Source of the DNA: a bacterium BMS3Abin02
GTDB taxonomy: Bacteria > Actinomycetota > Acidimicrobiia > Spongiisociales > UBA4744
Length of the DNA stretch: 64,000 nucleotides
Assembly (NCBI GenBank): GCA_002897675.1
Contig: BDSU01000045.1
Location: 23,282-87,281 of the forward strand
Reading direction: 5' to 3'
The notes under the pieces were generated by a model that saw nothing but the letters and a program-made list of their open reading frames with translations, was not told the DNA's origin and made no database searches. Made by a program: the position numbers and the translations under genes. Positions 29,246-60,594 of this stretch are shown piece by piece. Positions within the stretch are counted from its first letter, which is position 1; the number at the start of each line of letters is the position of its first letter.

Positions 29246-29319
29246 TGGGCCGGGTCGCGAGTATGAGCGCTTCCTGGTAGCTCTCATGCTCGGAAGCGGA
29301 GGAGGCGGGCGGCCTGTCG

Positions 29320-30516
29320 TCAACCCGTTCGCAGCGCTTCGGTCGGTGACATCCTCGCGGCACGCATGGCGGGGTAGAGGCCGGCGATCGCTCCGATGGC
29401 CAGAGCGGCACCCAGCCCGCCGACCCACGAGATCGTCGGGATCAGCGTCGTCCAACCTTTCAGCTGTGAGTAGGCGGCCGTGACCGCAGCTCCGAGGGCG
29501 ACGCCGCCGAGTCCACCGACCGCCGAGAGCAGGAACGACTCTCCGAGGAATTGGAGTGCCACGTGCCGTCGCGTTGCGCCGAGAGCTCTTCGAAGCCCGA
29601 TCTCGGAGCGACGCTCCAGCACCGAGATCACCATGACATTCGCGATGCCGACGCCCCCGACGAGGAGCGCGATGGCACCGAGCCCGAGAAAGAGCGCGGT
29701 GAGCGCGTCGTCCGCCGCTTCGCGTGCTTCGAGAGCATCGGTCGGTCGGGAGACCTCCACTTCTTCGGGGTTCTCCGGGTTGGTCGTCGCGGCGAGCACA
29801 CCCATGACCGCGTCGACCTGATCCGGAGTCGTTCTCACGTAGAGGGTGCTCGGTACGCCGTCGGCGTCGAGGTAGGTTTTCGCAGCCTGGATCGGTACGA
29901 TCGCGGCACGATCGAGATCGGGGCTCAGATCGAGCGGGTCGAGGATTCCCCGGACGGCGAACCATTGATCCCCGAGCCATACCTTCGGGGCGGCGTCCAG
30001 GCTGGAGATCCCCAGCCGTTCAGCGGCGACGGCACCGAGTACGACGGTTGGGTAGGAACCTTGCTCATCGAGGAACGTGCCGTCGGCAACGGTGCCTTGG
30101 AGCGTGTCGAGAAGGCTCGGATTCGCAGCCCTGACGGTGATCCCGCCGCTCTGTGTGGAGGGCACGTAATCGGTGCGATAGACCTTCGCGTCGACGTTGC
30201 TGACCGAGGAGACGGCCTGCACCGGTCCGATCCGCTCGATCATGGACACGGCCGTATCGGGAAGCTCCCCTCTGCCGATGCCGATTCCCTGGCCGGCTTC
30301 CACGGTGAGGAGGTTCGTGCCGAGCCGATCGAGTTTGGCCAGCAGATCCGACTTGCTCGACTCGGAGAGTCCGAGCACGCCGACGATCGCTGCGATGCCG
30401 ATCATGATGCCGAGCATCGACAGGGCCGCGCGCAGCTTGCGCGTGCGGAGGCCCACCGTGGCCGTGCGGAACACGTCACCGATGTGCAGTTTGGACGGAG
30501 TCAGGCCATCCGGCAT
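29320..30516 (-). CDS. ABC transporter permease, MacB/FtsX-like
   Basis: N-terminal TM, large extracytoplasmic domain, C-terminal FtsX 3-TM bundle (ALTALFLGLGAIALLVGGVGIANVMVISVLERRSEIGLRRALGATRRHVALQFLGESFLLS). Confidence 0.85.
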   Translation of the reverse strand: MPDGLTPSKLHIGDVFRTATVGLRTRKLRAALSMLGIMIGIAAIVGVLGLSESSKSDLLAKLDRLGTNLLTVEAGQGIGIGRGELPDTAVSMIERIGPVQAVSSVSNVDAKVYRTDYVPSTQSGGITVRAANPSLLDTLQGTVADGTFLDEQGSYPTVVLGAVAAERLGISSLDAAPKVWLGDQWFAVRGILDPLDLSPDLDRAAIVPIQAAKTYLDADGVPSTLYVRTTPDQVDAVMGVLAATTNPENPEEVEVSRPTDALEAREAADDALTALFLGLGAIALLVGGVGIANVMVISVLERRSEIGLRRALGATRRHVALQFLGESFLLSAVGGLGGVALGAAVTAAYSQLKGWTTLIPTISWVGGLGAALAIGAIAGLYPAMRAARMSPTEALRTG

Positions 30517-43070: not shown

Positions 43071-43076
43071 CTCCCT

Positions 43077-43125
43077 GAACCCTGGGCTCGTAGGTGCGCT
43101 GGGCGCACCTACGAGCCCAGGGTTC
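43077..43125. repeat. 49-bp palindromic interspersed repeat, copy C (perfect palindrome)
   Basis: gaaccctgggctcgtaggtgcgc-tgg-gcgcacctacgagcccagggttc with 23-nt arms that are perfectly complementary; 6 nt after the PRODH stop, between convergent genes. Confidence 0.8.
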
Positions 43126-43136
43126 GCAGCGAAGGG

Positions 43137-44249
43137 TTAGTCGTCGAGCCTTCCGAGTAGGTCGTCGAACAGTCCTGCCTCGTCGTGGAGTGGACGGACG
43201 GCACCGGCGCCATGGCGACACCAGGTGCAGAGAATCCGTCCGTCGGCGCCAACCTTGGACACCGTCGGGGTCTCACAGCTTTCGCAGGCGGCCAGGGCTC
43301 CGGCCACGAGCGTTCTGACGTTGTTCAACCCTTCGATGCGGTCGCCGAAGCTCACCGCCGAGTCCGGACAGGCCACGGCGCAGATCCCACAGTCGAGGCA
43401 CGACGCCGGCAGAAACGAAATGGCGAAGTCCTCATCTCCCGGTGGCATCATCAGCGCATCGGTGGGACAGAACTGCACGCACGCTCCACACGCGGTGCAG
43501 GCATCCGGATCGATACGGACATCGGCGAAAGGAACCTGCCCCGTTTCCATCTCGTCGACCATGGGAAGGTGGGCGAGTAGCCGGGCGCGCGACGACGGGA
43601 CGCTGCCGACGGGGTCCCGGTCGGCCAATTCGGCTGCCCGGTCACGGACCAAACCGAAGAGTGCTCGTCGAGTGAAATGCGGGTGGGCTCCGTCGATGAT
43701 CTCTCGAACACCGGAGGTCCCTGCCGTTTCCGAGGCGAGGAGGATGGCCTTGGGGTTTCCGAGAAGGGCATTCACCGAATCGGCCGTTGTGGTGATGACC
43801 GTATGTGCCGAGCCGATGGGGCACTCCTCACAGAGGGTGTCGTCCAGCACGATCGGTCGGTTCCCTTGGTCGGACAGTTTCAGGAGGTCGCCCATATCGA
43901 GGCTGCCCAGGCAGCTGCGGTGGGTGACGACGGTGGCTGTCGGGACGGGGGCCTCTCGTGGGTTGGTGCGGCGAACGCACACGACGCCGAGCTCGTCCGG
44001 TGCGTAGAGCGAGACCGCTCGGAGGAGCGTAGGTTCGGTACGGTCTTCTTCTCCGAAGACGTCCGTGGGACAGACCGCGACACAGACACCGCAGGCAACA
44101 CATGTTTCGGTGTCGAGGATCGGTGCCGGATGCTCCAAGCTGATCGCATCGACCGGACAAGCATCCGCGCACAGTCGACAGCCTGCGCGCCGATGGACGA
44201 GGTTGAGGCATCGGTCGAGGTCTGACGATGGGACGTGTTCGCCGATCAC
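43137..44249 (-). CDS. multi-cluster 4Fe-4S ferredoxin-domain protein (polyferredoxin), last gene of the molybdoenzyme operon
   Basis: Several CxxCxxCxxxCP motifs (CRLCADACP, CVACGVCVAVCP, CTACGACVQFCP, CLDCGICAVACP); no signal peptide. Confidence 0.75.
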   Translation of the reverse strand: MIGEHVPSSDLDRCLNLVHRRAGCRLCADACPVDAISLEHPAPILDTETCVACGVCVAVCPTDVFGEEDRTEPTLLRAVSLYAPDELGVVCVRRTNPREAPVPTATVVTHRSCLGSLDMGDLLKLSDQGNRPIVLDDTLCEECPIGSAHTVITTTADSVNALLGNPKAILLASETAGTSGVREIIDGAHPHFTRRALFGLVRDRAAELADRDPVGSVPSSRARLLAHLPMVDEMETGQVPFADVRIDPDACTACGACVQFCPTDALMMPPGDEDFAISFLPASCLDCGICAVACPDSAVSFGDRIEGLNNVRTLVAGALAACESCETPTVSKVGADGRILCTWCRHGAGAVRPLHDEAGLFDDLLGRLDD

Positions 44250-44331
44250 CCGTGGCCTCCAGACACGATCATGGGTCCGACGGGACCCATGATCGCTGCC
44301 TGGGAAGGACAGTGCAATGTGACCGAAGCCG

Positions 44332-47300
44332 CTACACCTTCTCGACCCTCACCTTCGTGTCGTAGAAGCTGGCGCTGCCACCGATCGGATCGGTGAGGCA
44401 GACATCGCCGACCACCGGGTCGATTCGCATTGCCGGGTTCGGCACCGTACCGGACGCTCGGGCCGGGTCGCCCTTGATCGTGAGACCGTCGATGACGACG
44501 TCGTTGGAGCCATACGCCCAGTGGCCTCGCCACGAAAGTGCGATGGTGCCGGGGCGCATCCCCTCCATCACATCCACTTCGGCTTCGACGGCGTAGGTAC
44601 GGCCATCACGGAGATCGAAGGCTCCGGTCGGGAGGCTTGCCGACACGATGCGGGCACGGTCGCCCGACTTGAGCCCTCGTGCGGCCGCGTCCCTCGTGTT
44701 CATCTGGATGTGGTTCCTGGGGGATACCGCCTTCTGAAGCCAGGCGGATCCTCGGCTACGGCTCTGACCTTCCCAGATCTCCTTGAAGGTGATGAGCGCA
44801 AGGTCGAATGCTCCGTCGTCGATCTCGTTGCCGGCGGCATCCTTGACCGGCTGCCACTTCGGCAGACCGTCGAACCGTTTGCCGGTCATGCTGTCCTTCA
44901 CTTTGGACACATTCTCGATGAACAGGTTCCACCGGCCGTTCCACTGGTGGGTGAGCCATTCGGTGTCCTTGTACAGCTTGTCGCTGGGCTCGAATCGCCC
45001 GCCGCGGTTGAGCAGGTACACGACACTGGGCCAGAGCTTCGCCGGTACGGCGCGCATCCACACGTCCTCGTCGAAGACAGTCTTCGGGAGGTGGCGCCTC
45101 GCTTGCCGAAAGATGCGGAACTCCTCGCTGTCCGCCTCCGGCAGCGTTTCGGAGCCGTCCTCCTTGTCCCCGAACGCCAGGTTGGCGAAGAACGCCAGAA
45201 AGTACTGTTCCGGACGGTCCAGCGGGTAACCGGATCCGAGCCCGTCCTTTCCGAACCCTGCCAGGCCGAGTTTCTTGCCGACGGCGATCAAGAACGCGTC
45301 GAACGAGATCGGCATCCGCTCGCCATCGACTTCGATGATCTCGGTCAGTGGGGCCATCGTGGGTTGGCGCACCTTGCTCATCTTCGTCAGGATCGTGGGT
45401 GACGTGTGTGGCGTCCCCCAGCGCTCCATGTAGGTGAGGTCCGGCACGATGTAGTCGGCGTACATGGAAGTCTCGCCGACGACGATGTCGCACGCGATGA
45501 AGAGCGGGATCTTGGCGGGATCTCGCAGCAGATCGATCTGGGCTTGTCCTGCCGGAGAGGAGAGGACCACAGTCCCCATGTTGGTGAGAACCACCTTGGC
45601 CGTGTACGGATATCCTGCCGCGGCGCTGGGGATGACGTGCTGGTAGACGTCGTTCGTGAACGGGTACCACGGTCGCTTGGCCGGGAACCCGTCGAACAGC
45701 GTCGTCTTGTCGTAGGTCGCCTGTTGGCGGTTGATGTGGATGCCCCACTTCTTCAGACCGCCGGGGGCCGCGGCAACGACACTCTTCGGGAAGGGCGCCC
45801 CGGGCTTGGAACCGTCCTCGTGCCAGTGGCCGCCACCTGCGGTGAGTCCGCCGCGATGGTTCACGTTGCCGATCAGCACATTGAGGGTGATGATCGCCTG
45901 ACCGTTGTGGTAGCCGTTGGTGTGCTGCACCGGGCCCCGATACATGTCGGTGGCGGCACGCTTTCCATGACTCGTGAACTCGTCGGCCAGGTCGGCGATG
46001 TCCCGCTCACGTATGCCGCAGATGTCTGCGTACTCGGCGAGTGTCCTCTCATTCGCTCGATCTGTCAGCAACTGAAACGCCGGCTTGACCGCGATACCGT
46101 TGACGGTGAACTCGCCTTGCAGGACACCGGCCGGTGCAGCGTCGGCAAGTGCCGGACCACCGTCGGTCATAACGACACGAGCTCCCGCCACCGGCTCGCC
46201 GTTCTTGTCGGTGGGAGGCTCGAGTCCGGCGTCTTCCGCCGTGAGGAACACCATGTCGTCGATCCGGACCAGATGGGTGGCGTCGGAGTAGGTGACTTCG
46301 CCGTTCGTCTTTGCCGCATCCATACTCGGTGCGGACAGGTAGGCGGAGTCGTAACGCCCACTCTCGATGATCCAGCGGATCATGCCCAGTGCCAGGGCGC
46401 CATCGGCACCCGGGTTCACCGGGACCCACTTCCAGGCTTTCGCCGCCGTCTTGCTGAGCCGCGGGTCGACGACGGCGAACTTGAACTTGTTCCTGATCAG
46501 TGAGTCGGTGACCTGTTCGGCCATCGGTGTCGGGCCGAAGTTCGCCTCGAACGCGCCGGTTCCGAAGAAGATGACGAACTCGGCCGAGAGGAGATCCGGC
46601 TTCAAGTGATCCTTGCCGCCCGTCATTTGCTTGAACGCGATGTGGTGGCTCTGCTCGCAGATCGTGGTGTGCAGGTAGTAGTTCACCGAGCCCATGCCGT
46701 CATACGTGAAGCGCTTGCTCAGCTCCTTGCGGCCGTGCTCCACGCGTCCACCCAAGAACACGAACTGGTTGTTCACCGGCCCCAGATCCGGATGGTCGGG
46801 ATCGATGAGAAGATCGAGGTGGGCGGCGTGCTTCTTTTTGAACTCGTCGACCGTCATGTCTCCGGCAACGACGCTGCTCGTATCGGCGGCGAGTTCCTTG
46901 GCGAGCCCGGGATCCCGGAGCTTGTAGACGTCCTGGAGTCCATCGACAGGACCCTCTCCGAAGAGATCGCCGCCGCTGGTGACCTCATCGATGAACTGGT
47001 CCCATTCGATGGCCTGCCACTGCCCTTGGCCTCTCTGACCGACCCTCTTGAGTACTTTGCGGACCCGGTAGGGGTCATAGGCGATCTGCACCGACGATTG
47101 GCCCTTCGGGCAGAGCTTCGCATCGTCCTTGGCTGCCTCGGGTAGTGCGGTGTTCTCCCACAATGCAGGCAGCAGATTCATCGGGCTGTACGGGTTGCCG
47201 TCGACCTTCACGAGCACGCCGTCTTGGAGCTTTGCCTTGAGCGTGCAGGCCGTGTGGCAGCTCAGACACACCGAGTAGATGAGGTTTTCGGGGTTGTTCA

Positions 47301-47490
47301 GCGGATAGGCGACGCTTGCTGCGGCGGCTGTGGGTTCCACGATGTTCCCGGTGATTCGTGCCAACGCCGGAAGGGAGCCGGCCATGGCGATCGATCCGCC
47401 GACGAGGGCGCTCGTCTTGACGAAATCTCGTCGAGTTACCGACAACGTGCTGTCGCTTTGTTGGGTGTCGGCCTGGCGTTCATCGGCCAT
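44332..47490 (-). CDS. TAT-exported molybdopterin (bis-MGD) oxidoreductase catalytic subunit, PsrA/PhsA/TtrA/SrdA clade
   Basis: 1052 aa. Twin-arginine signal (SVTRRDFVKTSALVGGSIAMAGSLPALA), N-terminal Cys cluster CLSCHTAC for a 4Fe-4S, and molybdopterin oxidoreductase and MopB-binding domains throughout. Confidence 0.9.
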   Translation of the reverse strand: MADERQADTQQSDSTLSVTRRDFVKTSALVGGSIAMAGSLPALARITGNIVEPTAAAASVAYPLNNPENLIYSVCLSCHTACTLKAKLQDGVLVKVDGNPYSPMNLLPALWENTALPEAAKDDAKLCPKGQSSVQIAYDPYRVRKVLKRVGQRGQGQWQAIEWDQFIDEVTSGGDLFGEGPVDGLQDVYKLRDPGLAKELAADTSSVVAGDMTVDEFKKKHAAHLDLLIDPDHPDLGPVNNQFVFLGGRVEHGRKELSKRFTYDGMGSVNYYLHTTICEQSHHIAFKQMTGGKDHLKPDLLSAEFVIFFGTGAFEANFGPTPMAEQVTDSLIRNKFKFAVVDPRLSKTAAKAWKWVPVNPGADGALALGMIRWIIESGRYDSAYLSAPSMDAAKTNGEVTYSDATHLVRIDDMVFLTAEDAGLEPPTDKNGEPVAGARVVMTDGGPALADAAPAGVLQGEFTVNGIAVKPAFQLLTDRANERTLAEYADICGIRERDIADLADEFTSHGKRAATDMYRGPVQHTNGYHNGQAIITLNVLIGNVNHRGGLTAGGGHWHEDGSKPGAPFPKSVVAAAPGGLKKWGIHINRQQATYDKTTLFDGFPAKRPWYPFTNDVYQHVIPSAAAGYPYTAKVVLTNMGTVVLSSPAGQAQIDLLRDPAKIPLFIACDIVVGETSMYADYIVPDLTYMERWGTPHTSPTILTKMSKVRQPTMAPLTEIIEVDGERMPISFDAFLIAVGKKLGLAGFGKDGLGSGYPLDRPEQYFLAFFANLAFGDKEDGSETLPEADSEEFRIFRQARRHLPKTVFDEDVWMRAVPAKLWPSVVYLLNRGGRFEPSDKLYKDTEWLTHQWNGRWNLFIENVSKVKDSMTGKRFDGLPKWQPVKDAAGNEIDDGAFDLALITFKEIWEGQSRSRGSAWLQKAVSPRNHIQMNTRDAAARGLKSGDRARIVSASLPTGAFDLRDGRTYAVEAEVDVMEGMRPGTIALSWRGHWAYGSNDVVIDGLTIKGDPARASGTVPNPAMRIDPVVGDVCLTDPIGGSASFYDTKVRVEKV

Positions 47491-47491
47491 G

Positions 47492-48730
47492 TCAGACGAC
47501 CTCCTTCTGACGGATGATTGGGAGTAGCTGATAACCGGCCAGGAACAGGAGTCCGGCCAGAGAAACCACCCAAACGAAGACGAGCCATTCGCCGAGGCTC
47601 GGGTAGTAGTTGAACGTCAGGCCGGGACCGGTGAAGGCCCGCTTGAGTCCGACGAGTTCTTCGACGTCGAGGCCGGGAAGGACGATGTTGAGTCGCACGG
47701 TGAGGAAGGTGGATGCGATGAGCGCACCTGCCCATCCGATCGCCGCCTTCGACCGGCTGCGGAAGGTCAAGAGCGCGACCGGCACAATGACGCCGAGCAG
47801 GACGTGAACGATCCAGAACGCCCACCAGTAGGGTCCGAACATGACCAGCCGGATGCTCTCGGTCATCGAGGGCACCGCCGATATGAGACCCGTGGAGTAC
47901 TCGGCCCATTCGAGGAGAATGTCGAGAGCCAGGAGCCCAAGGACGATCTGCCCGAGGAAGATGACGGTGCTGCGGTGTGCTCGAGAACCTCGGTCGGGAC
48001 CCCAGATGACGGTGAGGAACGTGAGGAGGGCGCCTCCTGACACCAGGGCTCCGACCAGGAACACGATCGGTGTGAGGCCGCCGTGCCAGAACGGTCGTGC
48101 ACCGACCACACCGAAGAGTGCTCCGACACCTCCGTGGAAGGCGATGGCGAGGGGAACACCGATCGATCCGAGGATCTTGAGGATTCTGTGATCTCGCTCG
48201 ACACTTTCGGTCGACCGGTCCTTGCGTCCAAACGTCAGGAAGCCACAGAGCTTGCCTCGAAGTCCTGGATCGCTCGCGCACGCGGCCAGGTCGGCCCGCA
48301 TGGCGAACCAGAGTTCGACGAGTAGGAGGGCGAAGTAGCTGCTGTACAGCCACGCCATCCATCCCATCATCGACGTGAAGTGGGTGTGGGTGATCAGGCG
48401 GTATGCCCGCAGTGGATGTCCCAGGTCGAACCACACCAACAGCATCGCTCCGAAGAGTGTGATCAGAGCGGTGAAGAGTGCCAGTTTGCCGACTCCTTCG
48501 AGTCGTTTCACCCGAAACACGTAGACGAGTGTCGACAGCAGGAATGCTCCGGCAGACAGGCCGATGAGGTAGATGTAGGCGGCAACCCACAAGCCCCACG
48601 GTATGTAGCTGCCGTAGTTGGCCATCTGGTGGCCTTCGGTGATTCGTTGGACCACGCCGACGGTTCCCACGAGGAACCCTACGCCGGCGAGTGCCCAAGC
48701 GATGGTTTTCGATGTCTTGGTCACAGTCAC
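47492..48730 (-). CDS. NrfD/PsrC-family polytopic membrane (quinol-interacting) subunit
   Basis: About 10 TM helices; GTG start at 48730 preceded by GAGGAGG, 9 nt after the FeS-subunit stop. The track ORF's upstream extension overlaps the FeS gene in another frame. Confidence 0.8.
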   Translation of the reverse strand: MTVTKTSKTIAWALAGVGFLVGTVGVVQRITEGHQMANYGSYIPWGLWVAAYIYLIGLSAGAFLLSTLVYVFRVKRLEGVGKLALFTALITLFGAMLLVWFDLGHPLRAYRLITHTHFTSMMGWMAWLYSSYFALLLVELWFAMRADLAACASDPGLRGKLCGFLTFGRKDRSTESVERDHRILKILGSIGVPLAIAFHGGVGALFGVVGARPFWHGGLTPIVFLVGALVSGGALLTFLTVIWGPDRGSRAHRSTVIFLGQIVLGLLALDILLEWAEYSTGLISAVPSMTESIRLVMFGPYWWAFWIVHVLLGVIVPVALLTFRSRSKAAIGWAGALIASTFLTVRLNIVLPGLDVEELVGLKRAFTGPGLTFNYYPSLGEWLVFVWVVSLAGLLFLAGYQLLPIIRQKEVV

Positions 48731-48738
48731 ACCTCCTC

Positions 48739-49455
48739 TCACACCAGGTAGTAGACCGACGGTTCTGTCCCCATCTCTTCCTTGAGCCGGATCGCGTTCG
48801 GCTGTGCGACCATCTTGGCGACAAGGGAATTCGGATCGTTGATGTCGCCGAAGTAGTTCGCGGCGCCGATGCACGTCGTCACGCAGGCGGGCAGCAGCCC
48901 TTGTTCCAGCCGGTGGAGGCAGAAGGTGCACTTTCGTGCGTTGCCTTCGGGCGACCCACCGTCGCGCGGCCATTCCTTGCCATACTCGAAGTTCGGCAGC
49001 AGCTCGTACTCCATCTGCTGGGGGGAGCCCTCGGTGTACGTGCGGCCGGTATCGAAGGTCCTTGCGGAGTAGGGGCAGGCGGTGATGCAGTACCGGCATC
49101 CGATGCACTGGTCGTAGTCGATCTCGGTGATGCCGTCGTCGCGTTTCCAGGTCGCGCCGACCGGGCATACTTCGACGCATGGTGGTTCTTGGCACTGCAT
49201 GCACGGCCGCGGCATGAACCGTCGGGTCACGTTGGGGAACGTGCCGAGCTCCGTATCCAACACCGGGCGGTAGACGACACCCGGCGGAAGCTTGTTCTCG
49301 GCGACGCAGCTGACGGTGCACGCGTGGCAGCCGACACACTTTCGCAGGTCGATCACCATCACCCAGTGGCGTTGATCGACCGGCTTCTGGAGCGCCCGTT
49401 CGATGTCCGTTCGCATTCGGACGAGCACACTCTCATGTTGGAGCAAGTCAGGCAT
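48739..49455 (-). CDS. four-cluster 4Fe-4S electron-transfer subunit (PsrB/TtrB/NrfC-like)
   Basis: [57 protein letters not shown]. Confidence 0.9.
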
Positions 49456-49759
49456 GCAACATCCTCCTCTCGCATGACCCGGAGGTATTGCATCATCGAG
49501 CGCCGGCGGCTGCTAGCGGGAGAATCCCTGGTTCGTGTCCGTGAGGTCCTGCATGTCGCGAGGCCCGATGTCGGGGAGATCCCCTACACGCCGGAGGACG
49601 CAGCTGCCGAGGTTTGACCGGAAATCACCGGGCGCGATGGGATTCGCCGCGTGGGTTCGAAGTTCCCCATGAGACGACGGGCAGTCGATATCACGGCCGC
49701 ATGGGCCGTGTGGCCGAGAGAAGCGAACGACGCTCGGCGGAGCGGCGCCCAGGAGTCGT

Positions 49760-50416
49760 CTACTGAAGCACCTCGAGTTCCAGGGCGAGCCGCACGAGGG
49801 ATGCTCGGCTGTGGAGGTCGAGTTTGCGCATCATGCGCGCTTTGTACGTCTCGACGGTCTTGACGCTGAGGTACAGCATGTCGGCGATCTCGGTGTTCGA
49901 GTGACCGAGTGCCGTAAGTTCGAAGATCTCGGCCTCTCGCTCGCTGAGTGAGTCGTAGCGTTCGTGCTTCTGGTCGGTCGGTTCCTGTGGGGTATCGAGG
50001 GTGTCTTCGAGCAAGAGCTTGGTGTGGCGGGGGCTGACGTACACACCTCCCTCGTGGACGGCTCGGATAGCGGTGAGCAGCTCCTCTGCGGCGGATTGTT
50101 TGAGCAGAAAACCTGCGCCGCCGGATTCGAGAATCGTCCGCAGGTATCCGGGATCGTCGTACATGGTGAGGACCAGCACCTTGCAGTCGGGAGCCCGTTC
50201 ACGGATCATCGGAAGCGCTTCGAGGCCGCTGCATACGGGCATGTTGATGTCCATCACGACGACGTCGGGGTTGAGGTCGGCGACGAGATTCACGCACATC
50301 GATCCGTCGCCGGCTTCTCCGACGACCTCCAGGTCGGCTTCCGCGCTGAGAAGTGATTTCAGTCCGGCACGGAGTACGGCATGGTCGTCGGCGAGGACGA
50401 TGCGAATCGGATTCAC
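49760..50416 (-). CDS. NarL/LuxR-family response regulator
   Basis: REC (IVLADDHAVLRAGL...VVVMDINMP) + LuxR HTH (LSEREAEIFELTALGHSNTEIADMLYLSVKTVETYKARMMRKL). Confidence 0.9.
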   Translation of the reverse strand: MNPIRIVLADDHAVLRAGLKSLLSAEADLEVVGEAGDGSMCVNLVADLNPDVVVMDINMPVCSGLEALPMIRERAPDCKVLVLTMYDDPGYLRTILESGGAGFLLKQSAAEELLTAIRAVHEGGVYVSPRHTKLLLEDTLDTPQEPTDQKHERYDSLSEREAEIFELTALGHSNTEIADMLYLSVKTVETYKARMMRKLDLHSRASLVRLALELEVLQ

Positions 50417-51837
50417 GTGGGTACCTCGATGTATACGGAGGTTCCGCCGCTGCCACTTTCGAATCGCACCCGCCCACCGAGGAGGTCGGCGCGTTCGCTG
50501 ATGCTGTGGATGCCGACACTCTTGCCTGAGCGTCGCATTGCGTTTACATCGAAACCGACTCCGTCGTCCTCGATGATCGCCTGGACCAAGCCGTTCCTTT
50601 GCGTGACAAGGACACTGATCGTTCTTCCGTGGCTGTGGCGGGCTGCGTTGGTCATGCCTTCCTGCACCATACGGTACAGCGCGATTTCCACCGTCGACTG
50701 AAGACGGGTGGTGAGATCGAAATGGGTGTCCACCGAGAACTCGGGATATGTGCTCCTGAAGTCGGCGGCGTAGTTGCGCAATGCCTCGGCGAGCCCAAGA
50801 TCGTCGAGAACGCTCGGACGCAGGTCGCGTCCGAGCTGGCGCACCGTCTGAAGAGTCTCATCGGTGATCGCACGCAACTCGGAGGCTCTGGCATTGGCAT
50901 CTTCGGTGCCATTGGCCAGTGCCAGGGCGGAGATCCCCAGAGTCAGGGAGTTGAGGGCCTGGCCCACGTCATCGTGGAGTTCACGAGCGATCCTCTTTCG
51001 CTCTTCTTCCTGGGCGGTGATGAGCTGTTCGAGCAGGCGCGTCCTGGCCGCTTCCTTCTCATCGATGGTTGCCTGGCTTTGCTGGAGGTCATTGACCATG
51101 TGGTTGAATGCATCTGCCAGCACGCCGATCTCGTCTTTCGCCCAGCGCCGGGCGCGCGCCGCGAGATCTCCCGACCCGACCTTCCTGGTGGTCTGCACCA
51201 GATCGAGGATCGGGCGGGTGAGGATCCAGGTGAGGAAGATGGCGGCAGCGATACCGACGAGGGCGACGACCAACGTCGTGAGCAACATCTGGCCGGTTAT
51301 CGCATTGATCACATTCTGCAGCCTCGTTTCTGAGAGCCCCACCCGGGCCGTGCCGGCGCGACCGTCGAAAATGGGCGCAGAGAACTCATGTATGGTGCCT
51401 TCACTGCTCTCGTAGATGCTCTCGCCGTCGGCGTCGTGATGGATATCGAAGAGCTGGGTGGGGAATCCGTCGACTCCGAACGTGTGGGCTACGACGTTGC
51501 CGCTCGGATCGACGACGTAGGCATAGAGGGCGTCTGGGTGGTGGGCGACCGTATCGGCGAGGAGATCGTGCAGTGAGAGCGTGTCGTCCAGGAGGAGCGG
51601 ATCGACGCTACGACCCGCGATGTCACTGGCCATGGATCGGCCCCGGCTGTCCAGTTCACCGATCAGAACTTGGCGGAGGACCGCTCTCACCTGCCAGGTG
51701 ATGCCGAGGCCGAGGACGGTGGTGAGGGCAAGGACGATGCCCAGAATCTTGGTTCTGACGCTGACGGCACCCAGCAGTTGTTTCGTTTGACCTGCATACC
51801 GTTCGAGCCCTGACGGGTCGGCCGTGCGGGTGGTCAT
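50413..51837 (-). CDS. sensor histidine kinase (NarX-like; periplasmic sensor domain, HAMP, HisKA_3, HATPase_c)
   Basis: Two TM helices flanking a ~150-aa periplasmic loop, HAMP, H-box ARELHDDVGQALNSL, ATPase GMTNAARHS...DDGVGFD...GGTSV. ATGA overlap with the RR gene. Confidence 0.85.
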   Translation of the reverse strand: MTTRTADPSGLERYAGQTKQLLGAVSVRTKILGIVLALTTVLGLGITWQVRAVLRQVLIGELDSRGRSMASDIAGRSVDPLLLDDTLSLHDLLADTVAHHPDALYAYVVDPSGNVVAHTFGVDGFPTQLFDIHHDADGESIYESSEGTIHEFSAPIFDGRAGTARVGLSETRLQNVINAITGQMLLTTLVVALVGIAAAIFLTWILTRPILDLVQTTRKVGSGDLAARARRWAKDEIGVLADAFNHMVNDLQQSQATIDEKEAARTRLLEQLITAQEEERKRIARELHDDVGQALNSLTLGISALALANGTEDANARASELRAITDETLQTVRQLGRDLRPSVLDDLGLAEALRNYAADFRSTYPEFSVDTHFDLTTRLQSTVEIALYRMVQEGMTNAARHSHGRTISVLVTQRNGLVQAIIEDDGVGFDVNAMRRSGKSVGIHSISERADLLGGRVRFESGSGGTSVYIEVPT

Positions 51838-52751
51838 GGGGTCTGCTCGACCGCGTCGATGACTTCGCGTACGCCGTCGTACGCGCTGTCGGCGATAGGG
51901 ACGAATCCGTCGATGCCCAACGCGGCCAGGACCGTCACACCCGCCGGATCCGTCGAGATCGAGAGAAGAAGGTCCCTGAGCTCGGCTGCCTGGCGTGGTG
52001 AGACATCCGGAGAGACGACCACGGGTGGGATGGTGAATGCAGGCGATCGGTCGATTACTTTGATCTGCGAGGCAAGGTTCGGATCTCTCCTCAGCGCGTA
52101 GTCGAGGACGAGACTGTCGACTCCGGCCGCATCGGCGACTCCGGCCGCCACGGCTTTGATGGCCCGATCGTGACTGTAGGTGAAGAATGTCCGGGCGAAG
52201 AACGTCTCCGGTGTCTCTCCGAGTTGTTCGACGAGGTAGGTGGGATAGATACGTCCCGTCGTGCTGATCGGATCGGTGAAGGCAAAGACGACTCCGCGCA
52301 GATCGCTCATGTCTTTAGCCGTGCTGTCGTAGGGAACGATGAGTTCGGAGTAGTAGACGGTCCGGTCCTCGATCTCGGGTGCAACGAGGAGACGGAGGCC
52401 GAACTGATCGTGACCGGCAACGTAGGCGCTGGTGCACACGAATCCGACGTCGACCTCGCCGGACTTGAGAAGATCGTTGATTTCCTGATAGGTTCGGCGT
52501 TGGACGATCTCGACCGGACGTTCCAGTTTGGAACTGAGGTAGTCGGCGAGGGCGCCGTAGTTCTCGATGTTGCCTTCCGGTGACAGGATGGCGGCGACGG
52601 CGATGCGCAGAGGCTTCACCTGCCCGCCGCCGGCGGGAGGTATGGGCTGTCGTTGCGCGAAGTCGACGAATGGAAGTTGGCTCGCTCCGGGTGTGGCGCA
52701 CGCCGCAAGGAGGATGGAAAGGATCGTGACCAGGGCGATCCGGACCTTCAT
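51834..52751 (-). CDS. PhnD/SsuA-like periplasmic substrate-binding lipoprotein (candidate third component of the sensor system)
   Basis: Lipobox ILLAACA. Type-2 SBP fold (LRIAVAAILSPEGNIENYGALADYLSSKL...VDVGFVCTSAYV...YYSELIV...VFAFTDPISTTG). No ABC permease or ATPase adjacent; overlaps the HK start. Confidence 0.7.
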   Translation of the reverse strand: MKVRIALVTILSILLAACATPGASQLPFVDFAQRQPIPPAGGGQVKPLRIAVAAILSPEGNIENYGALADYLSSKLERPVEIVQRRTYQEINDLLKSGEVDVGFVCTSAYVAGHDQFGLRLLVAPEIEDRTVYYSELIVPYDSTAKDMSDLRGVVFAFTDPISTTGRIYPTYLVEQLGETPETFFARTFFTYSHDRAIKAVAAGVADAAGVDSLVLDYALRRDPNLASQIKVIDRSPAFTIPPVVVSPDVSPRQAAELRDLLLSISTDPAGVTVLAALGIDGFVPIADSAYDGVREVIDAVEQTP

Positions 52752-53317
52752 CGTCTGTCTCCCACGTAGTGCTGCAAGAACCCGGCCAGTCCTACGACGT
52801 CGTCGAGGTCGAATTGGGGTACCGGCAGGTCCCAGGGTTGGTCGGTGACGAGGGCGAGCATCTCGGTGACGTCGCATAGGAGTTCGTCACTGCGCTCGGA
52901 CCGATGCACTTCGATCTTTGGGTATGTCCCTCGCTTGTAGCCTTCGGTCAGGACGAGGTCCATGCCGGCGAAGTTCTGGGCGATCACCGCATCGAGGTCA
53001 CCTGATCCGTTTTCCCGGCGGAATACTGCAACTTGAACGGGGCTCGCACCAACGACCACGTCGGCGCCTGCCTCGGCGAGCCGGTAGGTGTCCTTGCCGG
53101 GGACGTCGAACGACGACAGGTGGCTGTGATGTTTCAGGACGCCCACGGCGAGGCCGTGTCCCTTCAGTTCGGGCAGGAGCTTCTCCAGGAGAGTGGTCTT
53201 GCCGGTCCCGGACTTGGCGACGATCGAGACGACCGGCGGCTTGAAAGTGCGAAAGGGACCATTTGTGGCATGGCCACGTTGTGGGGTCACCACGGTGCGT
53301 TCAGGCGTCGTTGGCAT
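52748..53317 (-). CDS. mobB: molybdopterin-guanine dinucleotide biosynthesis adaptor protein
   Basis: P-loop VSIVAKSGTGKTTLLEKLL, VLKHHSH, TYPKIEVHR are characteristic of MobB. Confidence 0.8.
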   Translation of the reverse strand: MPTTPERTVVTPQRGHATNGPFRTFKPPVVSIVAKSGTGKTTLLEKLLPELKGHGLAVGVLKHHSHLSSFDVPGKDTYRLAEAGADVVVGASPVQVAVFRRENGSGDLDAVIAQNFAGMDLVLTEGYKRGTYPKIEVHRSERSDELLCDVTEMLALVTDQPWDLPVPQFDLDDVVGLAGFLQHYVGDRR

Positions 53318-53718: not shown

Positions 53719-55221
53719 TCATGCTCTCTTCGGTTTGGCGATACGCTGGAAGACCGTGGCGGTCACCGCGGCGAGTACGACGAGCCAGGCCAGGCCGAGC
53801 AGAAGTGCGCCGAGCTGGTCGAAGGTGGTGGTGAATGCCGCGTCGACGATGACTTGGGAGGCACCCCGGCCGGGGAGTACGAGGCCCCAACTCGGAGGGG
53901 CTGCCGAGAACATGATGTTCTGAGCCATTCCGACATCGATGAACGGCACCAAGAACATCACATAGAGTCCGCCGAGGCGTCCAAACAAGACACCGACGAG
54001 AACACCGATCATGCCGTAGGTGATGGCGATCAACCCGCTCCCCACTGCGAACCAGCCCCAATCCTTGGGAGTGAAGTCGAGAGCTGTGACACCGAGCGCC
54101 ACTGCCGTGGCCAGCAACGCTGCAACCACGATCGTGCCGAGCCTGGAGGAAAGGATCTCGCGGGGGCGAAATCCTGCGATGGCGAGGCGAGAATCGGCCT
54201 CGAGCGATCCCTGGACGACGAACAGGCCTGAGAGCCCGGCGAGAAACGCGAGGGTGATTGGCACCATGATGGCGCCGTGAACGTCGGCCAAGGAAAGGGT
54301 CTTCACCACTTTGATGCCGTTTTCGGTGAGCTCGACCGGTGTCGGGTCACCCGGCGTGACGTAGAAGCTGAGTGAGATGAACAGGACCGGGAGCACGATC
54401 AGCAGCACCCACATGGCGACGTTGCGGCGATAGTCGCGTTGACCGAAGCGAAACCCTGCTCGGAGACGGTTCCAGCTCGCCCGTACAGGGCCCGCTGCAC
54501 GCCTGATTCCTCGTGTCGAAGTGGCAGCGATGAACACCGCCGCGGCGACACCGAGAGCACCAAAGGTCCATAAGAGGGCCCAACCGAGGTTACCGATGGA
54601 GCCCGAATGTCCCGAGGGGGTATCGAGCATCACCAGCGTGATGAAGTGCGACGGGAACAGCCGGGTGATCCAGATGTCGCTGTCGGACATTGCGGGGCCG
54701 AGGAACACGTCGAACATCCAGATGAAGATCACGATCAGCGATCCGTTGATATCGCTGCGAACCAGGGAACCGATGGCGACGCCGATTCCCAGATAGAGGA
54801 TGGAGAACATGACCACTCCGGCGATGGTTCGACCCGGGTTGGTGAGACCGGTCCTCAACGCGAGCGCGGCTATCGACGCTCCTGCGGCGAGCAGAGCGAG
54901 GGCGAGCCCGGAGGCAAGCCGGCCTGCCACGATGCGGCGGGCGCCCATCCCGGCGGCGGCGAGACGACGGTCCGCGTCGCGAGAGCCGAGCACATGGAAG
55001 AACCCGGCCACTCCGGCAATGAATGCCGCAGCCCATCCTGCGGTAGGTGCGACGAGGTTGCTGGGATCTCCGGCGAAACCCAGGGCCTCGGCGAAATCGG
55101 CGATGGTTCCCGCAGTGAGAATGACGAAGATGAGGGGCACGAGTACGAGCAGGACCAGGTTGATGGGGCGGCGGGCGTATTCCGCGAGGTATCGTCCTGT
55201 GAGTCGTGTTGTGACCGTCAT
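53719..55221 (-). CDS. ABC-2 family transporter permease (large, ~12 TM)
   Basis: 500 aa, entirely hydrophobic helices; ATGA-type overlap with the upstream ATPase gene. Confidence 0.6.
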   Translation of the reverse strand: MTVTTRLTGRYLAEYARRPINLVLLVLVPLIFVILTAGTIADFAEALGFAGDPSNLVAPTAGWAAAFIAGVAGFFHVLGSRDADRRLAAAGMGARRIVAGRLASGLALALLAAGASIAALALRTGLTNPGRTIAGVVMFSILYLGIGVAIGSLVRSDINGSLIVIFIWMFDVFLGPAMSDSDIWITRLFPSHFITLVMLDTPSGHSGSIGNLGWALLWTFGALGVAAAVFIAATSTRGIRRAAGPVRASWNRLRAGFRFGQRDYRRNVAMWVLLIVLPVLFISLSFYVTPGDPTPVELTENGIKVVKTLSLADVHGAIMVPITLAFLAGLSGLFVVQGSLEADSRLAIAGFRPREILSSRLGTIVVAALLATAVALGVTALDFTPKDWGWFAVGSGLIAITYGMIGVLVGVLFGRLGGLYVMFLVPFIDVGMAQNIMFSAAPPSWGLVLPGRGASQVIVDAAFTTTFDQLGALLLGLAWLVVLAAVTATVFQRIAKPKRA

Positions 55222-55916
55222 TGAACCGTCTTCCCGTCACTCAGATGCACGATGCGGTCGAAGCGGTCCTCGTCTGCAACGAAATGGCTGATGATGAGTA
55301 CCGCCCGACCGGCGTCGCGACGTTCACCCGTCAGCTCCCAGAACCGCACGTAGGTGTCCCAGTCGAAGCCCGAGTACGGCTCGTCGAGCAGCAGGACGTC
55401 GGGATCGTGCAGCAGTGCCAAACCGAGATTGAGCTTGGCCTTCGTCCCGCCGGACAGTTCCTCGACCCGCATGTCGTGGTAGTCGGCGAAACTGAAGACG
55501 TCGTAGATGTCTTCACGATTCCTCTTGATCGTGCCACGATCGAGGCCGTATGCCTCGCCGAAGAGCTCGAAGTGTTCGTCAGGGTTGAGTCGCTCATACA
55601 GAAGCGGCTCCTGTGGGCAGTACCCGAAACTCCCGCGGATGTTCACACGCCCACCGTCGCCGTCCAGCGCGCCGACGACGATCTTCATCAGCGTCGACTT
55701 GCCGGATCCGTTCTCACCGACCAGTCCCACGACCTCGCCGGCCCTGACGGTGAGGTTCGCATCGGTGAGGACCTGGTTCTCGGTCCGGCGCCAGCGGCGC
55801 CGGTAGGCCTTGGAGATGTGCTCGGCTTTCAACAGGACACTTGGTTCCATGGGTATGGTTGGTGCGCCGCCGGCACCGGATCGTGGGTCGGTCTGTTGCT
55901 CGGTTTGCCGGGTCAT
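55218..55916 (-). CDS. ABC transporter ATP-binding protein
   Basis: GENGSGKSTLMKIVVG, LSGGTKAKLNLGLALL, VLLLDEPYSGFD. Confidence 0.85.
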   Translation of the reverse strand: MTRQTEQQTDPRSGAGGAPTIPMEPSVLLKAEHISKAYRRRWRRTENQVLTDANLTVRAGEVVGLVGENGSGKSTLMKIVVGALDGDGGRVNIRGSFGYCPQEPLLYERLNPDEHFELFGEAYGLDRGTIKRNREDIYDVFSFADYHDMRVEELSGGTKAKLNLGLALLHDPDVLLLDEPYSGFDWDTYVRFWELTGERRDAGRAVLIISHFVADEDRFDRIVHLSDGKTVQ

Positions 55917-56615: not shown

Positions 56616-57611
56616 TCACCCTCCGAGGTATGACATCTCGGCTCTTGGCAGGTCGCCGGTTGCCACTGTGCGAAGTTCCGAGTAGCGGTCGCTGCGGTCT
56701 CTCCAGACACTTGCGATGAAGTCCGCGACGTCACCCCCGGTGCGCAGCAGTTTGCGGAGATCGCGACCTCTGTTCGAGAAGAGGCATGTGAAGAGCTTCC
56801 CGTCCGCCGAGAGGCGGAGCCGGGTGCAGTCGCCGCAGAAGGGCCGGGTCACCGACGCGATGACCCCGACCTCGCCGGCACCGTCCTTGTAGCGGTAGCG
56901 TCGAGCGACCTCACCGCGGTAGGCGGGGTTGATCGGTTCGAGGGGGAACTCGGCGGCGATCATCGCGAGGATCTCGGAGGCGGGGACGACCTCGTTGAGG
57001 CGCCAGCCGTTCGTGGTCCCGACGTCGAGGTACTCGATGAATCGCACGATGTGTCCCGTGTGACGGAACTGGCGGGCCATGTCGACGACGGTCTGATCGT
57101 TGACGCCTCTGCGGACCACCGCATTGACCTTGAGCGGAGTGAGGCCGGCAGCGGAGGCCGCCTCGATTCCCTCGAGTACCCGGTCGACAGGGAAGTCCAC
57201 GTCGTTCATGTGTCGGAACACGTCGTCGTCGACGGAATCGAGGCTCACCGAGACCCGGTCGAGGCCGGCGGCGGCGAGCGTCTCGGCATTGTGCGCGAGC
57301 AGCGATCCGTTCGTTGTCAGCGTGAGTTCGATGTCGCCGATGGCGGCTACGCGGGCGACGAGGTCTGGGAAGTCGCGTCGGAGCAGCGGTTCGCCGCCGG
57401 TGAAGCGGATCTTGCGGATACCGAGACCGTACGCGGCCGAGGCCACCTGCTCGATCTCCTCGAAGGTCAAGAGTTGGTCACGCGGGAGAAACTCCCACTC
57501 CCGGCCGAACACTTCTTTCGGCATGCAGTAGACGCACCGGAAGTTGCACCGGTCTGTCACCGAGATGCGCAGATCCCTCAGGGGTCGGCCATGTGTATCG
57601 AGAGTGGCCAT
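56616..57611 (-). CDS. moaA: GTP 3',8-cyclase (molybdenum cofactor biosynthesis protein A, radical SAM)
   Basis: LRISVTDRCNFRCVYCMP radical-SAM cluster motif, C-terminal second cluster CxxC...C, ends ...MSYLGG. Coordinates follow the ORF-track frame with start at Met-55 (MATLDTHG); my hand count of the sequence lines was off by 1 nt near this start. Confidence 0.9.
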   Translation of the reverse strand: MATLDTHGRPLRDLRISVTDRCNFRCVYCMPKEVFGREWEFLPRDQLLTFEEIEQVASAAYGLGIRKIRFTGGEPLLRRDFPDLVARVAAIGDIELTLTTNGSLLAHNAETLAAAGLDRVSVSLDSVDDDVFRHMNDVDFPVDRVLEGIEAASAAGLTPLKVNAVVRRGVNDQTVVDMARQFRHTGHIVRFIEYLDVGTTNGWRLNEVVPASEILAMIAAEFPLEPINPAYRGEVARRYRYKDGAGEVGVIASVTRPFCGDCTRLRLSADGKLFTCLFSNRGRDLRKLLRTGGDVADFIASVWRDRSDRYSELRTVATGDLPRAEMSYLGG

Positions 57612-57742
57612 GTGCTCAGGCAATCTACACAGGTTTGAGCCCTGCTCCCGTGTGGGGATGCCGAGGCAATCGGGATGTTCCCGCTGCTCGACACGCCCGG
57701 AGGGCGGGCGACATGGGGCATACGTCCCGAAGACAGAGTCCC

Positions 57743-58060
57743 CTAGCCGGCTTCGAGTACCTCGTCGATCCATCCGAGGGCGGCGACCGCGGCCGGGAAC
57801 CCGACCGTTGTGATCGCGCCGAGCGCAACCTGGCGAATCTCCTGCGGGGATGATCCGGCCTGGAGGGATTTGCGGACATTGGAACGGACGGCACCTTCGG
57901 CAAGAGCTCCGATGGCGATCCCGAGTTTGACGAGTCGTGCGGCGCGGGCGTCGAGGGGGCCGGCGGCGTCGACGGCGCCGGCAAGGCGATCCAGTGCGTC
58001 ACTCACCTCGGGGTATGCCTGGCGGAAATCGAGATGCGCGCGCGGCAGATAATCGGACAT
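57743..58060 (-). CDS. carboxymuconolactone decarboxylase (AhpD-like) family protein
   Basis: 105 aa, all-helical, ...ARLVKLGIAIGALAEGAVRSNV...GSSPQEIRQVALGAITTVGFPAAV typical of the CMD/AhpD fold. Confidence 0.65.
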   Translation of the reverse strand: MSDYLPRAHLDFRQAYPEVSDALDRLAGAVDAAGPLDARAARLVKLGIAIGALAEGAVRSNVRKSLQAGSSPQEIRQVALGAITTVGFPAAVAALGWIDEVLEAG

Positions 58061-60060: not shown

Positions 60061-60375
60061 TCATCGTGCGGTCTCCAACAGCCCGTATTCCGCGGGGATC
60101 GCCCTACGCAGTTTGTCCCAGGCGCCGGAGGCGATCGAGTAGTCGACCCATCGGCCACGCTTGTCGCCGACGATGAGTCCGGCTTCCCTGAGGACCTTCA
60201 AGTGATAGGAGAGGAGGTTCGGGGCGATCGCGACGGTGTCGCCGATCTCGCAAACGCACTTCGGCGTGTCCGAGAGGAGGTCGAGGATGGCCAGCCGGGT
60301 CGGGTCGGCGAGTGCTCTGAACAGTTCGGCGCTCTGTTCAAAACGTGTTGTAGCAAGATCCATTGAAACGTTCAT
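60061..60375 (-). CDS. arsR: ArsR/SmtB-family metalloregulator
   Basis: ALADPTRLAILDLLSDTPKCVCEIGDTVAIAPNLLSYHLKVLREAGLI has the CVC metal-binding site in the first helix of the HTH. Confidence 0.85.
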   Translation of the reverse strand: MNVSMDLATTRFEQSAELFRALADPTRLAILDLLSDTPKCVCEIGDTVAIAPNLLSYHLKVLREAGLIVGDKRGRWVDYSIASGAWDKLRRAIPAEYGLLETAR

Positions 60376-60594
60376 GTCCGAACTGTACCAAGCGGGACAA
60401 GGGAGGCAAACCGGATGGTGAGGAATCGTCATGGCCCGTCTCGTCGTCACCGCGAGTGGTCGCCATCGGGTACGGACGCGACGATGCCGATCGGTGGTTA
60501 CCGATCGGCATCGTGTGGCGAGGAGGATTCGCCGGTGGGGTGTAGCCGGACGTCGTCGGGCCGGATCACCCCAATCGTCGGGCGCTTTGCGGGA

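Follow-up and report, generated by a model that had tools for sequence, protein, structure and literature searches.

The 64-kb stretch of DNA analysed here, referred to as the window, belongs to contig BDSU01000045.1 of the metagenome-assembled genome (MAG) BMS3Abin02, a member of the Acidimicrobiia. Between positions 43137 and 53317 it carries eight genes, all on the minus strand, encoding MobB, a PhnD-fold binding lipoprotein (X), a HisKA_3 sensor kinase (S), a NarL-type response regulator (R), the iron-sulfur (FeS), membrane and catalytic subunits of a molybdoenzyme (B, C and A) and a polyferredoxin (Table 1). From our comparative analyses we predict that this block probably encodes an alternative, Ttr-like respiratory arsenate reductase under ArrXSR control, since an enzyme of the tetrathionate/selenate reductase lineage is combined with a known type of arsenic-oxyanion sensor. 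Profile searches gave strong domain matches for all eight genes, and an independent gene call on public copies of the contig returned the same set, which confirms the gene block as first delineated from the letters of the window alone (the sequence-only reading).

The junctions between the mobB, binding-protein, kinase and regulator genes are 4-bp overlaps (ATGA, ATGA and GTGA, respectively), and these four genes therefore form one translationally coupled unit. The start of the binding protein was placed at 52751 (MKVRIALVTILSILLAAC, with a lipoprotein signal and the lipobox LLAAC, giving 305 amino acids (aa)) and not at 52877, the start of a 347-aa open reading frame (ORF). The regulator gene and B lie 304 bp apart. 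The B, C and A genes are closely packed, with a ribosome-binding site between B and C and a single base between the C stop and the A start, in the order known from ttrBCA and srdBCA, as the sequence-only reading had recognized.

Table 1. Features of the mobB-X-S-R and B-C-A-polyferredoxin region and its surroundings (positions in the window)
Feature	Position	Strand	Evidence or remark
mobB, adaptor of molybdenum bis(pyranopterin guanine dinucleotide) (Mo-bisPGD) cofactor synthesis, first gene of the mobB-X-S-R operon	52748..53317	-	PF03205 5e-39; TIGR00176 121 bits (cut-off 76)
ArrX-like lipoprotein sensor, AioX/ArxX/ArrX subfamily of PhnD-fold binding proteins	51834..52751	-	PF12974 1e-63
ArrS-like sensor kinase: transmembrane segment (TM) 1, periplasmic sCache_3_2, TM2, HAMP, HisKA_3, HATPase	50413..51837	-	Pfam; hydropathy peaks ~25-49, 184-202
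ArrR-like NarL/FixJ-type response regulator	49760..50416	-	Pfam REC + GerE
7-2-7 palindrome TCGGGGA-GA-TCCCCTA, candidate operator for the NarL-type regulator	49571..49586		116 bp upstream of B start
B subunit, four-cluster FeS protein	48739..49455	-	Fer4_11
C subunit, NrfD-type quinol-interacting membrane anchor, 410 aa	47492..48724	-	PF03916 2.5e-37
A subunit, Tat-exported Mo/W-bisPGD catalytic subunit, 1052 aa	44332..47490	-	Molybdop_Fe4S4, Molybdopterin, Molydop_binding
Intercistronic hairpin, 13-bp perfect stem, in the 82-bp A/polyferredoxin spacer	44250..44331	-	-44.2 kcal/mol, z = -4.4
Cytoplasmic polyferredoxin, 370 aa, six Cys4 groups, internal SRRxLF	43137..44249	-	Profile and homologue comparison
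23-bp perfect hairpin at the operon end, without U-tract	43071..43136		-54.9 kcal/mol, z = -9.6
moaA, molybdenum cofactor biosynthesis, radical SAM	56616..57773	-	PF04055 + PF06463
acr3 arsenite efflux permease	58893..~59927	-	TIGR00832 acr3 equivalog 431 bits (cut-off 283); PF01758
arsR-family metalloregulator, first of the arsR-acr3 pair	60061..60450	-	NCBIfam NF033788 ArsR/SmtB 82 bits (cut-off 55)

Sensor module and its linkage to the enzyme

Among all solved structures, the best relative of the binding protein is ArrX of Chrysiogenes arsenatis (PDB 6x6b; 185 bits, E 1.5e-53, 37% identity), followed by AioX (131 bits, E 3e-37, 31% identity), with the transport-type proteins PtxB (4e-20), HtxB (1e-10) and PhnD (2e-7) far weaker. 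AioX, ArxX and ArrX constitute a sensor subfamily with a pocket formed by Tyr88, Cys106, Tyr131, Ser161, Ser163, His192 and Asp210, the Cys of which is missing from PhnD (Badilla et al. 2018, PMC5908839). In the window protein the pocket reads Y-C-Y-S-T-H-D, identical at six of the seven positions and with Thr in place of Ser163, and this set is kept in all binding proteins that were found beside related molybdoenzyme operons. The protein groups with Chrysiogenes ArrX and with the X protein of an ArrA-type locus in Desulfopila. Binding by ArrX was reported at 1 µM for arsenate and 150 µM for phosphate, and none of AioX, ArxX and ArrX bound selenate, tetrathionate or thiosulfate (PMC5908839). 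The regulator encoded in the window is of the same NarL/FixJ class as ArrR of Chrysiogenes and Firmicutes, a FixJ/LuxR-type regulator without an AAA+ domain (PMC5908839). Judged by its relatives and its pocket, the binding protein is probably an arsenic-oxyanion sensor, and it is not a piece of TtrS.

The origin of this protein had been read differently from sequence alone, namely as the PhnD-like domain of TtrS encoded by a separate gene. Such a domain is indeed present in E. coli TtrS (PF12974). Direct comparison gave no BLASTP similarity (E 8.6), about 17% identity and none of the seven pocket residues shared, and the idea of a split TtrS was rejected; ArrX and AioX are the best solved relatives instead. 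The proposed three-component sensor of the AioX/ArxX kind holds up, as relatives, pocket, and co-encoded kinase and regulator agree. The binding protein also lacks transporter partners, as had been stated: no PhnC/PhnE-type gene is adjacent, and the neighbouring ABC pair is of the ABC-2 exporter type.

The enzyme clade is a large one. A first homologue search with A returned 1908 protein clusters at E <= 1e-20, the best 120 of which are 55-100% identical to their query and, where named, belong mostly to Chloroflexota. Within the clade of at least 49% identity to A, the X-S-R module accompanies B-C-A in eight of the nine loci with usable flanks, the window included; three loci were too short to judge. 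Its position varies. L004, the 83%-identical relative, has the same order as the window including mobB, whereas in Litorilinea aerophila (L005) X-S-R lies upstream and is interrupted by an ArsR-family gene and other genes. The module lies downstream in Ardenticatenaceae (L006) and a Chloroflexota MAG (L011), and downstream on the other strand in an Anaerolineaceae MAG (L025). It is also present in Desulfobacterales (L012) and in L092, and L091 is the locus without it. The same X-S-R-B-C-A order recurs at 41% identity to A in Desulfosporosinus metallidurans (L015). Because the linkage between X-S-R and B-C-A outlasts rearrangement, we argue that it reflects a functional tie. A second FeS and NrfD pair comes after the X-S-R genes of L006 and L092.

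Genes for ArrX-like proteins are found beside other molybdoenzymes as well, namely a Citrobacter-type enzyme (L017), Myxococcales A-B operons (L035, L038), an enzyme of Aquificaceae (L047) and the ArrA-type enzyme of Desulfopila aestuarii (L071), the A subunit of which scores 1130 bits on the ArrA model. The sensor at the latter locus (L071 5092-6894) has 600 aa with two Phosphonate-bd stretches, and its partners are a HisKA kinase and a sigma-54 regulator, versus HisKA_3 and GerE in the window.

The palindrome in the 304-bp gap upstream of B has a 7-2-7 layout, which is that of NarL sites, and we infer that it may serve as the operator of the NarL-type regulator. It is the sole exact match to TMGGGGANNTCCCCKA in the window, where seven matches with up to two mismatches were found versus 1.15 expected by chance. 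L004, the closest related locus, has the same 7-2-7 motif at the same distance from B. A regulator-binding motif common to all related loci was not found, the palindrome being shared by the closest relative only.

Catalytic subunit

The curated model that matches A best is TtrA (NF011567, 510 bits), at under a third of its cut-off of 1750, followed by PhsA (172 bits) and ArrA (NF041714, 123 bits, cut-off 1600). B scores 191 bits on TtrB (cut-off 416), 188 on DsrO and 174 on ArrB. The twin-arginine translocation (TAT) signal that had been noted on A is supported by TIGR01409 (19.6 bits, cut-off 16.7; motif SVTRRDFVK). Tetrathionate reductases are characterized by TAT leaders on both A and B and by nine helices in C (PMC12949373). 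B of the window starts with MPDLLQHES... and has neither a TAT signal nor an RR motif, whereas E. coli TtrB carries SKRQFLQ. C shows about 9-10 hydrophobic peaks versus 8 for E. coli TtrC by a crude hydropathy analysis that is too coarse for helix counts. The TAT signal of B varies within the clade: some homologues among L011-L014 have a twin-arginine signal of their own, and those of L004 and L006, like that of the window, have none.

TtrA, SrdA and the archaeal arsenate reductase have been treated as one lineage (PMC7331816), and the assignment of A to the TtrA/SrdA lineage by the sequence-only reading agrees with both the best family model and the placement in our tree. The tree was obtained by neighbour-joining from 57 sequences and 967 columns with 100 bootstraps; as it is distance-based and lacks the experimentally studied references (PSR-1, OR-1, Pyrobaculum PAE1265, Melioribacter MROS_1076 and SrdA), it should be read as a rough map. 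A groups with the 83%-identical MAG protein and with Chloroflexota (Litorilinea, Ardenticatenaceae, Anaerolineae), and further outward with Desulfobacterales (bootstrap 100) and then with Desulfosporosinus and an Omnitrophota MAG (bootstrap 100). The whole group is sister (bootstrap 96) to haloarchaeal and Bacillus/Neobacillus proteins. The E. coli TtrA clade is placed elsewhere, beside Tepidibacillus/Desulfitobacterium proteins, so that A falls inside the lineage but outside the clade of true Ttr. When plasmids were searched by tblastn, identity was 29.8% for enterobacterial TtrA, 34-35% for haloarchaeal proteins and 36% for another operon carried on enterobacterial plasmids. The 90%-identity cluster of the 83%-identical relative includes an Acidimicrobiia MAG protein. 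The PSR-1 protein was not among the matches obtained with a high-GC Myxococcales homologue as the query.

A has the FS0 cysteines C78, C82 and C127 with a CxxC, the Mo-ligand Cys278 and a Gly-Arg motif at G248-R249. In a phmmer alignment with ArrA (PDB 6cz7), G248-R249 corresponds to G164-R165, H274 to H189, T275 to S190 and C278 to the Mo-ligand C193, while V250 stands at Y166 and H283 at K198. The Gly-Arg pair has been proposed to mark all arsenic-metabolizing enzymes, the Ttr-like arsenate reductases among them, and to be lacking in bona fide Ttr (PMC12949373). In our alignment true Ttr lacks it (in E. coli TtrA the two residues are T-S), as do the haloarchaea and the Bacillus/Neobacillus homologues, which share 35% identity with A and form a separate sister clade; it is present almost everywhere else. 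Family models, tree and motifs together assign A to the TtrA/SrdA/arsenate reductase lineage and speak strongly against a tetrathionate reductase.

The window clade, Desulfosporosinus/Omnitrophota, Bacillus/Neobacillus and haloarchaeal proteins have in common an insertion of some 30 residues (LRDPxL...A.D...G.M...F..K; A residues ~186-228). The insertion is longer in Aquificaceae; true Ttr, Arr, the Citrobacter-type clade and the Myxococcales types do not have it.

Substrate and direction of catalysis

The sequence-only reading held that the substrate cannot be told from sequence, which we consider too pessimistic. Sensor type, Gly-Arg motif, the nearby arsR-acr3 pair and earlier published cases agree in indicating an arsenic oxyanion, and arsenate is the likeliest. 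The direction of catalysis is not readable from sequence; reduction is favoured because the sensor is nearer to ArrX than to AioX and groups with Arr-linked X proteins.

The closest published precedent is the Ttr-clade operon of Melioribacter roseus, where a phosphonate-binding-like protein, a kinase and a regulator ('ArrTSR') are encoded ahead of the enzyme genes, arsRPCB lies close by and ttrA transcription increases with arsenate (Gavrilov et al. 2017, PMC5492636). It resembles the window in combining a Ttr-lineage molybdoenzyme, a preceding PhnD-like protein with kinase and regulator, and a close ars locus. It differs in belonging to another phylum (Ignavibacteriae), and the paper mentions neither a fusion of mobB to the sensor operon nor a polyferredoxin. 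For two TtrA homologues, those of Anaeromyxobacter sp. PSR-1 and Geobacter sp. OR-1, later papers cite induction by arsenate as well as As(V) reductase activity (Muramatsu et al. 2020, via PMC11462812, PMC12949373); like A, these homologues lie outside the true Ttr clade and have the Gly-Arg motif. In addition, transcripts of ttrA-like genes from Chloroflexota occur in paddy soil that releases arsenic (PMC11462812), arsenate reduction in Limisphaera has been assigned to a Ttr-like complex (PMC13608581), and arrRSX adjoins sreABC in archaeal elements (PMC13444090). At least two separate clades of Ttr-like arsenate reductases are found in the literature. In view of these precedents the window is a further example of a recognized arrangement, in a clade and a host phylum that have not yet been studied. 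The architecture is not new, the Melioribacter operon with its ArrTSR and ars genes having been described in 2017 (PMC5492636). Overall, the sequence-only reading was partly right, on architecture and lineage, but not on the origin of the sensor or on the substrate being unknowable.

The locus was also compared with the better-known systems. With the ArrX-ArrS-ArrR module of Chrysiogenes it shares the binding-protein subfamily and pocket, the use of the protein as a sensor and not as part of a transporter, and a FixJ/LuxR-type regulator without an AAA+ domain. However, the Chrysiogenes module controls a canonical arrAB and not a Ttr-like B-C-A operon, the binding proteins share only about 37% identity, and that of the window is a lipoprotein, the gene of which is translationally coupled to mobB. 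With TtrBCA-TtrSR of Salmonella and E. coli it shares the B-C-A order, the NrfD-type anchor, the TAT signal on A and a LuxR-type regulator, but identity to TtrA is 30%, the Gly-Arg motif occurs only in A of the window and a TAT signal on B only in TtrB. TtrS, moreover, is a HisKA kinase with a fused, unrelated PhnD-like domain, whereas the window has a separate binding-protein gene and a HisKA_3 kinase. Canonical ArrAB(C)(D) systems resemble the window in their Cys-ligated Mo-bisPGD, the equivalent of Arg165, an X-S-R-type sensor and a homologous downstream polyferredoxin (in Desulfopila, L071). Canonical ArrA has about 850 aa, A-B order and a TorD-type chaperone, in contrast to the 1052-aa A and the B-C-A order of the window, and A scores only 123 bits on the ArrA model.

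Several observations weigh against an arsenate reductase. The pocket residues are the same in arsenite-binding AioX and arsenate-binding ArrX, and the pocket therefore leaves the oxidation state of the ligand unfixed; ArrX also binds phosphate, though weakly (PMC5908839). Among the arsenate-binding residues of ArrA, only Arg165 both discriminates and is kept, with Tyr166 replaced by Val and Lys198 by His. The Gly-Arg motif separates A from Ttr, yet judging from its distribution it is probably ancestral and no proof of the substrate. The nearest neighbouring clade, of haloarchaea and Bacillus/Neobacillus, may include the selenate reductase SrdA, and the enzyme clade of the window contains no characterized member. 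Finally, X-S-R was not found within 10 kb in L091, inside the clade, or in Omnitrophota L014 (44% identity).

A first alternative, which we regard as unlikely, is a reductase of another oxyanion, for example selenate (SrdBCA-like) or antimonate, with an ArrX-family sensor that has drifted to that ion. It would accord with the B-C-A order of srdBCA, with a sister clade that contains Bacillus/Neobacillus sequences and shares the insertion, with the common lineage of TtrA, SrdA and the archaeal arsenate reductase (PMC7331816) and with a weak match of the binding protein to a putative selenate-binding protein family (86 bits, cut-off 250). Neither the Bacillus/Neobacillus nor the haloarchaeal clade has the Gly-Arg motif, and X-S-R is lacking in those of their loci that were examined; the window protein, on the other hand, retains the full arsenic pocket including the Cys, and arsR-acr3 is nearby.

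That the enzyme works in the opposite direction, as an Arx-like arsenite oxidase feeding the quinone pool or cytochrome c and with a sensor responding to arsenite, appears quite unlikely to us. A small cytochrome c gene replaces that of the polyferredoxin after A in L092 and in Litorilinea aerophila, and Litorilinea is an aerobe. The ambiguity of the AioX, ArxX and ArrX pockets (PMC5908839) would also allow it, and Arr and Arx are close relatives that act in opposite directions (PMC7331816). The higher similarity of the binding protein to ArrX (37%, 185 bits) than to AioX (31%, 131 bits) and its grouping with Chrysiogenes ArrX and the Desulfopila ArrA-type X protein argue against oxidation, and the published Ttr-like cases are all reductases.

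A genuine sulfur-compound reductase (for tetrathionate, thiosulfate or polysulfide) is what the database name 'tetrathionate reductase subunit A' implies, and TtrA as the best family model and source annotation, the equal scores of B on TtrB and DsrO and the name of the MAG, which we take to suggest a (deep-sea) sulfide-deposit origin, would suit it. We nevertheless hold it to be highly improbable, given the low TtrA score relative to the equivalog cut-off, the position of A outside the true Ttr clade, its Gly-Arg motif, the lack on B of the TAT signal found on true TtrB, a sensor unrelated to TtrS and the failure of ArrX-family proteins to bind tetrathionate or thiosulfate (PMC5908839).

For the favoured arsenate reductase we propose the following mechanism. 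It follows the established principles of AioXSR/ArrXSR three-component signalling, NarL-type regulators and NrfD-anchored complex iron-sulfur molybdoenzymes. Homology and pocket conservation suggest that the lipid-anchored ArrX-like protein binds arsenate outside the membrane. The loaded protein would then dock on the sCache domain of the HisKA_3 kinase, which would phosphorylate the NarL-type regulator, and the latter would bind the 7-2-7 palindrome and activate B-C-A-polyferredoxin. A would receive Mo-bisPGD and the FS0 cluster in the cytoplasm, with the nearby moaA and mobB supplying the cofactor and the NapF-like polyferredoxin (see below) helping in cofactor loading, before being exported by Tat with the signal-less B as a passenger. 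The NrfD-type C subunit would oxidize menaquinol and hand electrons on to the four clusters of B and so to the Mo site; Arg249, among other residues, may hold the arsenate there. Arsenite entering the cell would be expelled by ArsR-controlled ACR3.

The identification of this locus bears on surveys of arsenic mobilization, in which arrA is used as the marker of respiratory arsenate reduction and Ttr-like enzymes under ArrXSR control would be missed. The sensor, with its seven-residue pocket and its linkage to kinase and regulator genes, offers a means to separate by sequence the arsenic-linked members of the ambiguous TtrA/SrdA lineage from those linked to sulfur or selenium. As Litorilinea aerophila is cultured and carries the whole module, the prediction is directly testable.

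Polyferredoxin and surrounding genes

The ferredoxin of 370 aa encoded after A is present as the sequence-only reading described it, except that it has six conserved four-Cys groups and not four clusters. A search of 1.84 billion representatives gave 1612 homologues at E <= 1e-10, and the best 150 of these are mostly full-length proteins of 380-430 aa; the polyferredoxins are thus a large, uncharacterized family of about 400 aa. Among 138 full-length representatives, the six Cys4 groups are conserved at >= 95% and an internal (S/T)-R-R-x-(L/F)-F motif, at R194-R195 in the window protein, at 97-98%, whereas an N-terminal RR motif or hydrophobic signal core was found in none.

Every context that was sampled is an operon of a Tat-exported Mo-bisPGD enzyme. 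The polyferredoxin gene follows A in the window, L004, L006 and L096; in L094 the two are separated by genes for a cytochrome c and FmdE. It lies directly after a NarJ/TorD-type chaperone gene in L097 and L098 (DmsABC-type operons), in L038 and in the arr locus of Desulfopila aestuarii (L071), where full-length homologues follow arrA-arrB-arrD. In some Chloroflexota relatives the place that the polyferredoxin gene holds in the window, after the catalytic gene, is taken by a gene for a small monohaem cytochrome c (L005 12192-12575, L092 13311-13688 and L094 2032-2400).

NapF is a cytoplasmic protein implicated in the maturation of NapA before Tat export (PMC10609526). The N-terminus of E. coli NapF, VKIDASRRGILTG..., carries the motif of the polyferredoxins, lacks a hydrophobic core and leads into ferredoxin motifs; the window protein is matched in part by the napF model. 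Both are cytoplasmic multi-cluster ferredoxins with a twin-arginine-like motif, SRRG(I/L) in NapF, that lacks a hydrophobic signal core, and both are encoded with a Tat-exported molybdoenzyme. However, NapF has 164 aa and an N-terminal motif, while the motif of the window protein is internal (residues 193-198 of 370), and the latter has in addition an N-terminal ferredoxin domain, a four-Cys middle domain and a C-terminal CxxC...CxxC; sequence similarity is confined to the ferredoxin motifs. On account of the conserved internal motif, the molybdoenzyme-operon contexts and the NapF precedent, we infer with moderate confidence that the polyferredoxin is a NapF-like maturation or electron-loading factor and not a respiratory subunit. 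The family is of possible interest for research on molybdoenzyme maturation.

A more far-reaching interpretation, which we put forward as a doubtful one, is that the enzymes of Chloroflexota and Desulfobacterales, transferred to Acidimicrobiia, represent a distinct, uncharacterized clade of arsenic-oxyanion oxidoreductases that are neither Arr, Arx, Aio nor any of the published Ttr-like types, perhaps acting as arsenite oxidases in aerobic carriers with a cytochrome c partner. The polyferredoxin would then be a widespread, undescribed maturation factor for Tat-exported molybdoenzymes, acting through its internal NapF-like twin-arginine decoy motif.

The 13-bp hairpin between the catalytic and polyferredoxin genes may lower expression of the latter, and the 23-bp hairpin sits between the polyferredoxin gene and a convergent proline dehydrogenase gene. 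No Rfam family, including the Moco riboswitch, was found at E <= 0.1 in 40000-64000, and a sigma-70 promoter scan of the region gave no sites. No TorD/NarJ-type chaperone was detected by tblastn in the window. Upstream of mobB follow the ABC-2 exporter-type pair (53719-55916), moaA, doxX on the opposite strand and arsR-acr3. The presence of the latter pair had been reported correctly, but its distance is 5.6-7 kb upstream of mobB and not about 9 kb. The acr3 ORF extends to 60158, with the profile match starting only at ORF residue 78. Elsewhere in the window, an ORF of 799 aa (27581-29980, minus strand) without a Pfam match at E <= 0.001 lies beside a MacB-type ABC transporter pair.

ArsR-family genes adjoin homologous operons in L005, L015/L016, L027 and L007. 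The last of these, on a plasmid of Citrobacter arsenatis LY-1 (NZ_CP037863.1, 7034-12429), exemplifies a Ttr-like FeS/membrane/catalytic operon that is found divergent from arsRDABC on IncF-type plasmids of Citrobacter, Salmonella, Enterobacter and E. coli. Its catalytic protein shares 36% identity with A, has the Gly-Arg motif and is annotated merely as 'molybdopterin-dependent oxidoreductase'; the operon is distinct from the true ttr operon of other E. coli plasmids. A homology search seeded with the Citrobacter plasmid protein returned relatives from Vibrio and Gammaproteobacteria.

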